From the IMG/VR virus record IMGVR_UViG_3300036802_000106, positions 1 to 48,024 of that record: DNA of 48,024 bases; one strand, given 5' to 3'. The notes under the pieces are model-generated. The model was not told where the DNA came from. It saw nothing but the letters and a program-made list of their open reading frames with translations, and made no database searches. This DNA is from a virus. Taxonomy: Duplodnaviria; Caudoviricetes. This document shows positions 14,620 through 22,329 of this stretch, piece after piece. Made by a program: the position numbers and the translations under genes. Numbering within the stretch: position 1 is the first letter of the stretch; each line of letters begins with the position of its first letter.

Positions 14620-14823
14620 ATGAAACCTAAACTAAAGTTTGATTTAAATAAATTAAATTTAGCGGTAATTAATAGTGCATATTCAGTTAATGAAATAGCA
14701 GATAGATCAGGTCTTTCAAGAGGAACTGTATCAAGAGTATTAAATAATAATGTAGATGTAACATATTCAACAGTAGGAAAGATAGCAAAGGCATTAGGTG
14801 TAAGAGCAGAAGAAATAATGTAA
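14620..14823 (+). CDS. XRE HTH protein
   Basis: EIADRSGLSRGTVSRV..KIAKALGV. Confidence 0.85.
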   Translation: MKPKLKFDLNKLNLAVINSAYSVNEIADRSGLSRGTVSRVLNNNVDVTYSTVGKIAKALGVRAEEIM

Positions 14824-14845
14824 AAGTTGGATTTTAGGAGGAGAT

Positions 14846-15154
14846 ATTATAACAGGAGAAGAAAAGGAATTTGACTCTAGGTTTGATGCTTGTAAATTTA
14901 CAGGAATTGAAAGAAAAATATTAAACGGATATATGAAAAAAGGTATTGTTTTTCAAAAGAAATATAAATTTATAGACTTATATTATGAGAAAAAATATAT
15001 GAAAATTCTTGTATTTGATAGAGAAATACCTTTATTAAAGAAATATTTTGAAAGTGAAAATTCTGTAGAACAGATTATAGAAGATGTTAAGAAAGAATAC
15101 ATAATCTATAAATATAAAAAAACAAAGAATAAATTAATGGTATATGTATATTAA
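14846..15154 (+). CDS. Hypothetical protein with NUMOD1-like N-terminus (start uncertain)
   Basis: Frame is open upstream of ATG 14933: IITGEEKEFDSRFDACKFTGI; RBS aggagg at 14836 is followed only by ATT/ATA. Confidence 0.45.
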   Translation: MITGEEKEFDSRFDACKFTGIERKILNGYMKKGIVFQKKYKFIDLYYEKKYMKILVFDREIPLLKKYFESENSVEQIIEDVKKEYIIYKYKKTKNKLMVYVY

Positions 15155-15442
15155 AACTAAATATTTGTTTTATAAATAGTACTTTAGATGCAAAAACCAT
15201 CTAACGGTCTGAATGCTAGATGGTTCTTATATTGATAATATACCCTAGATGTCTAGATAATAAGATAATAAGATATTAATTTTATTATCTACAAATTTAA
15301 GAAAAATATACTTGTTAGCAAGTTAAACAATTATGAAAATAATAAAAAATTAGAAGAATATACAAAAGATGAATTAATCAAAGAGTTGGCTAGAAGAGCA
15401 TAAGTAGTTGAGATTATGAAATATTGGTTTTAGGAGGAGATT

Positions 15443-15868
15443 ATGAAAAGGTTAAAGTTATATAAAGAAGTTGTACATAAAGTTGGTAATAGGTTTGATT
15501 ATGATTGGGATAGATCACCGATATTTAAAACTATAGAAGTAGAGGACGATTTTGATATATGGTCAACTCCTATGTTTATAAATGGAAAGTTTTACAGTGT
15601 ATCATGCAGAGCAGAAGATAATTGCGAAATAGTAGAGTTAGACTATTTCAAGTTTGATGCAGATGAAGAAGATTTAGACAACTTTGGAGAAGATGAAATA
15701 ACTTGTCCTGTATGTGGGTCTAAGCAATCGGACTCATGGGAATATAGTTGCGATAGTGACAATCATATATGCGAAGATTGTGGGTCTGAATATGAATGGG
15801 AAAGAGTTGTAGATGTTACTTATAGCTCTCAAGCTATAAATATAGGTAAACATATAGAGTTAGATTAA
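15443..15868 (+). CDS. Zinc-ribbon protein
   Basis: CPVCG...CEDCG; RBS aggagg. Confidence 0.75.
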   Translation: MKRLKLYKEVVHKVGNRFDYDWDRSPIFKTIEVEDDFDIWSTPMFINGKFYSVSCRAEDNCEIVELDYFKFDADEEDLDNFGEDEITCPVCGSKQSDSWEYSCDSDNHICEDCGSEYEWERVVDVTYSSQAINIGKHIELD

Positions 15869-15911
15869 TAAAATAACTGACACTTATGCCCAGGGAACTA
15901 TAGGAGGAACT

Positions 15912-16283
15912 ATGAGAGATTTTAAATTTAGAGCATGGAATGGATTCATGATGTTAACTCATGAAGAACTATTAACTGTAGCTAAAGAATTATGCCAAGA
16001 TGCAGGTAAAGCAGGAGAATATGAAGGATGTGTTCTCATACCAAACAATAAGAAATTAAAAGTTATGCAATATACAGGATTAAAAGATAAGAATGGGAAA
16101 GAAATTTATGAAGGTGACATAGTAAGCATATTTGATACTACAAGAACTATGAGTGTTGTATCTACTGCTTTAGTTGAATTTAAAGAAGGCTCATGGGTAT
16201 CTAACGATTATTGTATAGGATTAGTTTTTTATATAGAAGTTATAGGAAATATATACGAAAATAAAGATTTATTAGATAACTAA
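15912..16283 (+). CDS. YopX-family protein
   Basis: KFRAW, MQYTGLKDKNGKEIYEGDIV, EVIGNIYEN. Confidence 0.93.
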   Translation: MRDFKFRAWNGFMMLTHEELLTVAKELCQDAGKAGEYEGCVLIPNNKKLKVMQYTGLKDKNGKEIYEGDIVSIFDTTRTMSVVSTALVEFKEGSWVSNDYCIGLVFYIEVIGNIYENKDLLDN

Positions 16284-16306
16284 AGATGGGTTTTAGGAGG
16301 ATTAAT

Positions 16307-16468
16307 ATGAAAATTAAAAAAGTAGAAGTAACTTTAATTTTAAATATAATCCAACTGATATCAATAATTTTACTATTGATATCAGTTGGAAAAAGAAATC
16401 AGGTTACATTAGAGTTGAATAAAAAACTAATTATTTTGGATGATTTAATCAGGAATAGAGTTTTCTAA
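16307..16468 (+). CDS. Small membrane protein
   Basis: RBS gggagg; hydrophobic LILNIIQLISIILLLISV. Confidence 0.5.
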   Translation: MKIKKVEVTLILNIIQLISIILLLISVGKRNQVTLELNKKLIILDDLIRNRVF

Positions 16469-20502: not shown

Positions 20503-20573
20503 AGAGTGATGAATTTTATGTCACTCTTTTTTAATACAAATAAAACGATGATTTTTATGGGAGAGGGTTAGCT

Positions 20574-20684
20574 ATGAAATTGTTAAAATCATGGACCGAT
20601 AATCCAAAGGATTTAGTAGATTTAGAGTACATATTTGGCTTAGAAGCAGATAAAGAGATAGATAGAATAACTAAAGAAAATTAA
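20574..20684 (+). CDS. Hypothetical 36-aa protein
   Basis: RBS gaggg; MKLLKSWTDNPKDLVDLEYIFGL... Confidence 0.4.
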   Translation: MKLLKSWTDNPKDLVDLEYIFGLEADKEIDRITKEN

Positions 20685-20689
20685 AGTGG

Positions 20690-21157
20690 GTGATTGAGTT
20701 GAATATAAAAAATGAAAATTTTAAAAAAGTAGAAAAAGATTTAATAAATTTAAGAAAAAATTTAGTTTCTATAAATGCATGGAAAATTGAAATAGAGGTT
20801 CTTAAAGAAAAAATGAGTGCATATAAAGATAGAGATTTCAACTTAATGTCCAATTCTAATGGAACGGTTACACTAGATGACATATTAGAAAGAGATGAAA
20901 CTAGGTTAAATACATTAGAAAGTAATATTGATTATACAAATTATAAATTAAAAGAATACAAAGCATGCTTAAAAGTACTTGATGATAGAGCGTATGAAGT
21001 AATAAATAGAAAATATTTAAGTATAGAAAATAAAAGATGCTCATATCATCAAATAGCCAAAGATATGTATAGCTCACATACAACAATAAGAAGAATACAT
21101 GATTCAGCAATAAAACAAATAGCAGAACATAAGTATAAAATCCTTGCAATAGCTTAA
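20690..21157 (+). CDS. RinA/ArpU-type late transcription activator
   Basis: Sigma-4-like C-terminus EVINRKYL..SYHQIAKDM..TIRRIHDSAI; last gene of the early region. Confidence 0.8.
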   Translation: MIELNIKNENFKKVEKDLINLRKNLVSINAWKIEIEVLKEKMSAYKDRDFNLMSNSNGTVTLDDILERDETRLNTLESNIDYTNYKLKEYKACLKVLDDRAYEVINRKYLSIENKRCSYHQIAKDMYSSHTTIRRIHDSAIKQIAEHKYKILAIA

Positions 21158-21158
21158 G

Positions 21159-21220
21159 CGTTCCAAATATGTTCCAAAAATGTTCCAAATATGTTATAAA
21201 AAAGTTCCAAACGTGTTCTA
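21159..21220. promoter_or_regulatory. Six 11-bp-phased tgttccaaa repeats (activator sites before the late promoter)
   Basis: gtt cores at 21160, 21171, 21182, 21193, 21204, 21215. Confidence 0.7.
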
Positions 21221-21491
21221 TGAAGTGTGTTAATATGATATTGTGAAGAATTGAAAGAAGCTCTTCCAGTCGAGAATTAACTCGGGATCACATATAAAAA
21301 GACTATCTTATTTTTTCAGATTTAATAAGATAGTCTTTTTTAGTACAAATAGTGGAGAAGAATAATATTATAAATAAAAGGGGCGCTATGCCGCTCTACT
21401 ATTAAATAAGCCTTGAGCACACGTTGCGAAGGCTTATTTTTATGTACAAAGTATATTGTAAGTTAAATATTACAAAAAAGAAGGAATTATA

Positions 21492-21629
21492 ATGTCAAAA
21501 GTATGGAGAGATGCAAGTGACATAAAAATGATACATGACTTTGAGAGTGAAAAATTAAGAGAATTGGATAAGCAAATGCGAGAAAAGCCTAAATTCAATA
21601 AAAATAGTAAGGATGGTGAAAAAGAATGA
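21492..21629 (+). CDS. Hypothetical 45-aa protein
   Basis: RBS aagga; MSKVWRDASDIKMIHDF...; overlaps the recombinase start. Confidence 0.5.
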   Translation: MSKVWRDASDIKMIHDFESEKLRELDKQMREKPKFNKNSKDGEKE

Positions 21630-22329
21630 TATGAGGGAAGAAAAGGAAAATATATATGTAAGTGATGAAATAGATAGGTCTGATTTAAAAGTTCCATCTA
21701 ATCCGATACCGTATCATTTACTTAAAAGATTTGAATATAGATTAGTTGAAAAAAGTAGAGATCATCCAGAAAGAAATAAAGCATTATTTTTATTACAAGT
21801 AGCTACAGGTTATAGAGCACAAGACTTAGTTGATTTACTAATAGGAGATATATATGATGCTTTAGAGTGTGAATATTTTTCAATACAGGAAAAAAAGCAG
21901 ATAAAGGCATATGAAACTCATAGGAAAAATTATTTTAAGAAACATGGAAAAGAATCAGGAAGAGACAGACCAGCGAAAAGAGAAGTAGACATACATAAAA
22001 ATTCTGATACTTACAAAGTTTTAGTTAAATATATAAAGGGCAAAAAGAAAAGTGAACGAGCATTTCCATCAAAAGGAAAGTATGGATATTTAACATCAAA
22101 GTCGTATAGTAGAATATTAAAGTCAGTTGGAGAAGATCTAGGGCTAGAAAATATAACAGGACATAGCCCAAGGAAAACTAATGCTACTACTGTTTATGAA
22201 GATACAAGAGATATAGTAGCGACAAAAAGACACCTAGGACATAAAGATACACTAACAACTGAGAAATATATAGGAACTTATAAAGAAGCACGTAAGAGAA
22301 TAGGAACTATATTAGCTAGTAGGTTCTGA
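21613..22329 (+). CDS. Tyrosine recombinase, catalytic domain only
   Basis: TGYRAQDL (R), GHSPRKT (HxxR), LGH, TEKYI (Y); too short for arm/core-binding domains. Confidence 0.92.
   Translation: MVKKNDMREEKENIYVSDEIDRSDLKVPSNPIPYHLLKRFEYRLVEKSRDHPERNKALFLLQVATGYRAQDLVDLLIGDIYDALECEYFSIQEKKQIKAYETHRKNYFKKHGKESGRDRPAKREVDIHKNSDTYKVLVKYIKGKKKSERAFPSKGKYGYLTSKSYSRILKSVGEDLGLENITGHSPRKTNATTVYEDTRDIVATKRHLGHKDTLTTEKYIGTYKEARKRIGTILASRF

Follow-up and report, generated by a model that had tools for sequence, protein, structure and literature searches.

Block replacement at short recombination sites is familiar from engineered cassette exchange, where heterospecific lox or FRT sites join common arms to incompatible spacers. 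Among natural systems, the closest described are the xrs/pdif modules of the Acinetobacter Rep_3 plasmids, whose dyad sites with a centre of 6 base pairs (bp) depend on the host XerC/XerD and flank variable genes. The centre is reported to set their compatibility, and exchange to be intermolecular, with xrs sites recombining between plasmids via matching central regions and without excision (PMC11705084); for dif itself an 11-6-11 layout has been described (PMC5357621). Here we analyse a series of TAAAA-N6-TTTTA sites in a viral DNA of 48,024 nucleotides (IMG/VR record IMGVR_UViG_3300036802_000106, hereafter the window), which is the whole 48-kb, 28% G+C genome (CheckV completeness 100%) of a myovirus, a small temperate clostridial phage. 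Comparison with related phages leads us to favour, on balance, the view that these sites serve as address-coded crossover joints for block exchange between phages, with a recombinase of the tyrosine type probably acting in trans. As in xrs/pdif modules, the variable genes are bordered by dyads whose centre measures 6 bp, and matching centres seem to matter. These sites differ in belonging to a phage, in forming an ordered series of 13 co-oriented sites, in being known from sequence comparison alone, and in having arms of ~5 bp with inner AAAA/TTTT in place of the 11-bp arms with inner ATAA/TTAT described for xrs/pdif. With respect to lox/FRT exchange, the present sites are natural and their arms short.

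Twelve of the sites (Table 1) had been located in a preliminary description of this DNA, and all of them were confirmed letter for letter, although the two that had been taken for variants with a 5-bp core are better read as 6-bp cores (tatttg at 15157 and gatggg at 16280) behind a CTAAA left arm, a form in which gatggg recurs in kin. The site at 13495 was absent from that list. Enrichment was assessed on a hand-made gene list, with gaps of at least 8 bp taken as junctions, against 500 dinucleotide shuffles. Up to two mismatches being allowed, 12 of the 14 accessory junctions carry a site (shuffle mean 1.27, maximum 6, 0/500 reaching 12), and with at most one mismatch 9 of 14 still do (shuffle mean 0.53), whereas late-gene junctions stay at chance level (3/19, with 3.06 expected); among early-gene junctions one of five, that at 13495, has a site. 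A scan of spacers of 3-10 bp with at most one mismatch gave nine junctions for a spacer of 6, four for 7 and no more than two for each of the others. As the motif was defined on these very sites, the shuffle figure is partly circular, and checks outside the window matter for this reason. In this regard, phage SPbeta has the site at 12 of 42 junctions with the same peak at spacer 6, a peak absent both from host chromosome loci (7/159 junctions) and from 19 prophages of genomes G008-G015 (15/152 junctions; here and below, G, L and X numbers are our labels for compared genomes, loci and contigs). The same motif with other cores was also encountered in Bacillus-type and large gut phages, and conservation is confined to the 16-mer, no base outside it exceeding 68% in 131 site contexts. 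The motif is therefore real and present beyond chance at accessory junctions, as the preliminary description had supposed. A lone perfect site (core gaaaca) lies outside the array, at 46776-46791 in the tail/lysis region.

The cores themselves are kept, and largely ordered, in related phages. In prophage L118, whose NA37 protein is 93% identical, tattgg, gatggg, gaggag, attgta and ggtaca follow one another as in the window with mostly unrelated genes between them, and subsets of the window cores are common to L121, L126, L127, L135, L137 and L162. Over 38 loci the pairwise order of cores agrees in 187 of 208 pairs, aacata being the chief exception, and caataa always stands 3′ of gatggg (6/6) and of gaggag (14/14). 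Part of these loci had been recruited through gatggg, gaggag or attgta, cores that are marked as such in Table 1; aacata and caataa were not so used. Pattern scans of metagenome and viral sequences gave mostly chance matches, at least two window cores lying between genes in 31 of 554 loci. Judged from these comparisons, the cores likely act as addresses and not as the cassette ends of an integron.

The boundaries of homology point in the same direction. All-against-all BLAST of 39 array loci placed right ends of homology at the last bases of a site in 43 of 125 intergenic cases, against 8.6 expected, and left ends at the first bases in 25 of 108, against 6.4 expected; with a peak at both edges, the site is more than the tail or the head of one gene. 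A second peak of homology ends falls at the ribosome site. In 35 loci, kept after dropping four near-duplicates, the core is identical in 110 of the 124 site pairs that have only one flank in common (chance 2.7%), and alleles with several partners retain one core in 13/17 cases on the left and 15/20 on the right. When the three recruiting cores are excluded and only distal flanks considered, the figure is 40 of 46 (chance 1.5%). The tolerance of mismatched spacers that had been proposed for this system is thus not supported. Identity, in a profile where the inner AAA/TTT match by definition, stays at 90-100% through site base 13, drops to 55-58% at bases 14-15 and reaches 23-35% at bases 16-18. 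Contigs from three other studies (X2, X3 and X4), several of which have short sides and belong to other phages, contain comparable joints. A contig of X2 matches 17981-18190 at 209 of 210 bases and diverges 2 bases beyond the attgta site at 18173 into unrelated DNA, and an X2 contig connects the aacata site to gene 19868; a contig of X4 joins the window where the aacata site starts (18595); in X3 the gaggag core stands behind the hairpin that in the window precedes agtatg (19316); and in one contig gatggg and attgta are separated by 1471 other bases. Altogether, BLAST ends, one-sided pairs and contigs bear out the expectation that breakpoints of gene gain and loss in related phages would fall on the sites.

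The obvious neighbouring suspect, a catalytic-domain-only tyrosine recombinase encoded at 21613, is probably not the dedicated enzyme of the array. Among 139 distinct loci anchored on ArpU, with an array defined as two or more addresses, arrays lie beside this recombinase clade in 2 of 33 loci (the window is one of the two), beside another minimal recombinase in 5 of 17 and without any minimal recombinase in 6 of 89. Put otherwise, no array accompanies 31 of 33 clade loci and 6 of 13 arrays have no minimal recombinase after ArpU, so that the co-occurrence foreseen in the preliminary description fails. In this line, three loci outside that table (L248, L256 and L258) have arrays with no minimal recombinase before the terminase, identical cores adjoin recombinases only 25-36% identical, the near-complete array phages G119-G122 encode only longer recombinases or none, and the five recombinases of genome G080, which may be incomplete, all occupy frames of at least 300 amino acids. 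No spacer-6 excess was found upstream of the recombinase gene in 84 loci, and the motif occurs at 1/8 junctions of phiCD38-2 and 0/3 of CP124689. A de novo dyad search over 400 junctions of 50 clade loci yielded no alternative junction dyad, its clearest excesses resembling the repeat behind ArpU. That the enzyme at 21613 also acts on the junction sites seems rather doubtful.

Its true substrate is likely a conserved cis element immediately 3′ of the gene (22340-22510). The outer inverted arms of this element, at 22344 and 22454 and ~100-110 bp apart, are complementary at 7/10 positions in the window and covary across the clade in dozens of clostridial phages; a middle anchor is kept in 52 of 69 elements, and a strong inverted repeat is present in 42% of elements vs 0% of 40 shuffles. 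Elements of this type also occur in clade loci without an array, and other minimal recombinases are accompanied by dif-like or similar two-dyad elements. An attC-like hairpin reading was rejected, folding being weak and inconsistent in 55 elements. With genes for ParA and Rep3, a head-module serine resolvase and only one tyrosine recombinase, the window has the make-up of a plasmid-type prophage, and on this point the preliminary description was right. The simplest reading would be a resolution module for circular prophages, in which the recombinase probably resolves multimers at its own adjacent site.

For the junction sites, strict 6-bp spacing and fixed arms round many cores fit a dif-like recombinase core, and spacing together with core matching points to a tyrosine recombinase as the type of enzyme. 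A dimeric protein of this type would bring about a crossover between two phage genomes at a site with the same core, and a second one at another common core would replace the block between them. Exchange would proceed more between molecules, through a cointegrate and its resolution, than by excision; unlike cores would protect the array from self-deletion, and duplicated cores in some kin could allow a block to be gained or lost. The enzyme would be supplied in trans, probably not by the neighbouring gene, with host Xer-like proteins, a family of 305-335 amino acids and the minimal recombinase of a co-resident phage as candidates. Hosts carry XerD-like and other recombinases of 291-302 amino acids, with no dif site evident beside their 302-amino-acid recombinase and no clostridial dif found in the supplement of PMC3025954. 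The phage-borne family, a candidate for either the array enzyme or a tail-gene invertase, occurs in the tail/lysis module of some array phages and in large phages; it is represented by proteins of 307-335 amino acids between tail and lysis genes of small prophages (L566, L567, L574, L575; L558-L560), ~34% identical to one in phages of 107-131 kb, and is absent from the window, G119 and G120. Position, spacing, common cores, mostly fixed order and sharp breakpoints are the observations from which this scheme starts; binding of the arms by protein, the identity of the enzyme as a tyrosine recombinase, intermolecular exchange and the source of the enzyme are what it would add.

Several results weigh against such a scheme. 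The compared loci are kin, some of them recruited by core, and their pairs are not independent events. Cores are unlike in 14 of the 124 one-sided pairs, five window cores occur in no other locus, and aacata is found on either side of gaggag (12 vs 3). The conserved arm, of only ~5 bp each, is short for a known recombinase, and the left arm is often partly a stop codon. No single recombinase gene is found throughout the array phages, and arrays are somewhat commoner with a minimal recombinase (7/50) than without (6/89), figures that are raw counts from unmatched hosts. Above all, homology ends in 44 of 116 site-less junctions and in 31 of 70 junctions with a non-recruited site (Fisher p 0.44), the value for recruited sites being 23 of 34. 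Site-less junctions are thus swapped about equally, so that the sites do not appear hotter than other gene borders and microhomology stays a rival: by sequence comparison they are joints, but junction counts do not bear out that they are the sole or the hottest ones.

The rival in question supposes that the palindrome is kept for some other reason, either as a regulator site or as a stop codon with a T-rich run ahead of the ribosome site, and that swaps arise by ordinary short-homology recombination, as they would at other conserved gene borders, same-core sites pairing merely through their 12-16 identical bases. The swapping of site-less junctions, which have other recurrent short words, and the second peak of homology ends at the ribosome site both speak for it, and there is precedent, RecET being reported to join 5-13 bp at ~1e-8 and exchange via short conserved flanks having long been proposed (PMC2327257). 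Short homology leaves unexplained, however, the fixed arms and exact 6-bp spacing round many cores in phages ranging from those of Bacillus to clostridial ones, the absence of the motif from late genes and host junctions, and the sites distant from a stop codon; moreover, the window open reading frames (ORFs) that were scanned gave no match to an annealing-protein family. As to a regulator, the integrase-fold protein of SPbeta is described as working as a repressor (PMC10516654), but the site reported for it is long, different from the junction sites and bound by a monomer (PMC10516654; bioRxiv 2025.11.27.690993), and promoters are not in excess in the array region (65 predicted vs 74 in shuffles). 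We regard this alternative as somewhat unlikely. Far less probable still is that the sites are mere operators or spacer with no exchange role, or chance matches: an AT-rich motif is found 54 times at up to one mismatch in this AT-rich genome, but the shuffles and the breakpoints on both edges with the core kept tell against both versions, and a chance origin is refuted.

The preliminary description had proposed an integron-like system for the excision, capture and reordering of cassettes of one gene each by the neighbouring minimal recombinase, with tolerance of unlike cores. Its non-random sites, and breakpoints on them, have stood up to analysis; the link to the recombinase, the tolerance of spacers, the analogy with Tn916 and the excision or capture of circles find no support in it. 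The likeness to integrons is a run of small genes, mostly single between repeated sites (one gene in 9 of the 11 intervals from 14821 to 20541), near a tyrosine recombinase that is intact. Kin do contain same-core direct repeats that could allow excision, with a single YopX gene enclosed by them in L240, L260 and L283; a small number of left flanks are combined with two cores (L119/L256), and four Bacillus-type loci carry the motif, L336 having it upstream of ArpU and a minimal recombinase. Unlike in integrons, no folded attC is apparent, conservation covering the 16 bp only and no Rfam match falling in the array; the enzyme is not of the IntI family (19.4 bits with TIGR02249, whose cut-off is 265) and its gene is not linked to arrays; order is mostly fixed and cores must mostly match. 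A clean empty/filled pair was not found in kin, the sole candidate being rejected as its crossover lies at the ribosome site, and joints of excised circles were not found in contigs, which drop rare forms. In view of the clade loci without arrays and the array phages without minimal recombinase, this proposal appears quite unlikely. Sites of Tn916/Tn1549 integrases likewise have A/T tracts round six bases, but the target described for Tn1549 is TTTT-n6-AAAA, of opposite polarity, and core homology is reported to be ignored there (PMC5871717), while here cores are kept. PeSL cassettes of T4-type phages resemble the array as repeated intergenic elements in variable regions subject to modular shuffling among related phages; they are described as units of promoter and stem-loop that form mini-circles (PMC2839356), in contrast to the 16-bp sites with distinct centres found here, for which neither a promoter excess nor circles were found.

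Illegitimate or homeologous recombination that leaves no signal at the borders is the usual explanation of phage mosaicism (PMC2327257). Sites that are short, strictly spaced and carry an address, as they stand at exchange borders in small clostridial phages, Bacillus-type phages and SPbeta, would offer a directly testable mechanism for it and, if the enzyme is found, would make up a natural exchange system with many addresses and very short sites. A literature search that covered mostly papers free of subscription found no published description of such an address-coded system. More tentatively, and with less confidence than in block exchange as such, it is possible that Firmicute temperate phages share one cassette-exchange code made of fixed arms, six-base addresses and a single conserved, mostly borrowed recombinase, by which unrelated phages of 40 kb and 130 kb would exchange accessory genes one slot at a time, with no need of long homology.

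Table 1. Junction sites, genes and other elements of the array region (positions in the window; counts refer to 37 other loci)
Feature	Position	Strand	Core in other loci	Remarks
Site CAAAA aatggg TTTTA	13495..13510			5′ of NA37 gene; different core at same place in L118
Site, core gttgga	14821..14836		0/37	overlaps stop of helix-turn-helix (HTH) gene
Site CTAAA tatttg TTTTA	15157..15172		0/37	
Site, core tattgg	15417..15432		3/37	X4 contig joints 15419, 15438
Site CTAAA gatggg TTTTA	16280..16295		14/37	behind YopX; recruiting core; X3, X4 joints from 16295
Site, core gaggag	17406..17421		29/37	behind HTH gene; recruiting core
Site, core attgta	18173..18188		6/37	behind GIY-YIG gene; recruiting core
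Site, core aacata	18597..18612		17/37	non-recruiting
Site, core agtatg	19316..19331			behind terminator-like hairpin that recurs before 20541
Site, core ggtaca	19673..19688		1/37	L118, same relative order
Site, core aggaga or, one base on, ggagat	19847..19863			ambiguous register
Site, core caataa	20210..20225		14/37	non-recruiting
Site, core cgatga	20541..20556		0/37	
HTH gene	14620-14823			
Accessory genes	14933..20684	+		lying between sites
YopX	15912-16283			
ORF	16445-17149	-		reverse strand
HTH	17214-17408			
GIY-YIG	17449-18129			
Nucleoside deoxyribosyltransferase-like	18204-18599			
ArpU/RinA-like late activator (phrog_36)	20690..21157	+		right boundary of array
45-amino-acid ORF	21492..21629	+		kin behind ArpU both with and without recombinase
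Tyrosine recombinase, catalytic domain only	21613..22329	+		likely start 21631
Conserved cis element	22340..22510			3′ of recombinase; two core-like dyads

The recombinase itself is real and intact and, in keeping with the catalytic-domain-only enzyme of the preliminary description, lacks a core-binding domain. R68, K95, H184, R187, H210 and Y219 are invariant in 40/40 aligned proteins, and from this invariance K95 would be the catalytic lysine. The structure model (pLDDT 90.2) finds its best PDB match in XerA 5hxy (TM 0.53); in the model, residues 1-23 are mostly of low confidence and the remainder is predicted to form the catalytic domain. Simple tyrosine recombinases are described as having a core-binding domain (PMC8138268), and the homologue search made here covered short forms. 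Of its kin with a named source, the nearest come from Romboutsia and Paraclostridium, and a search for the genomic context of the closest kin (65-90%) found none. Kin were met in 39 plasmid records, 25 of which, among the matches listed, are all phage-sized (32-42 kb).

The array region is bounded by the replication genes on one side and by the ArpU-like late activator on the other. Apart from the genes named in Table 1, those between the sites have no assigned function, and PADLOC matched none of the 11 array proteins tried. YopX-family genes reach up to three copies per array, and a second recurrent junction word, comprising stop, ribosome site and start, is often found 5′ of them (L119, L121, L135 and L256). 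Two elements are duplicated next to sites, a 41-bp one behind them (18620-18660 and 20224-20264) and a terminator-like hairpin before them (19276-19330 and 20500-20554), and both also occur in other phages next to other cores. Four repeats at 11-bp spacing lie 3′ of the ArpU-like gene (21160-21218), with comparable short repeats behind ArpU in kin, and are probably the ArpU binding site.

Elsewhere in the genome, a group II intron that lacks an ORF (Rfam RF02004 at 7077-7281, RF00029 at 6472-6556) interrupts the Rep3 initiator gene (5759-7805, minus strand), and a LexA-like protein of the phage is encoded beside the repressor gene (8564-9196, minus strand). In the window the DnaC-like gene (11760-12562) appears to carry a frameshift; an extra base is present near 11953 in contigs of X1, X3 and X4, so the frameshift is probably an assembly error. 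Encoded at 26675-29202, in the head module, are a minor head protein of MuF-like type with a fused Ntox50 domain, a short ORF, possibly an immunity gene, and the serine resolvase. Finally, an intact ORF on the minus strand at 303-1529 combines ricin-B lectin and Toxin_10 (insecticidal P42-like) domains on this clostridial phage-plasmid.

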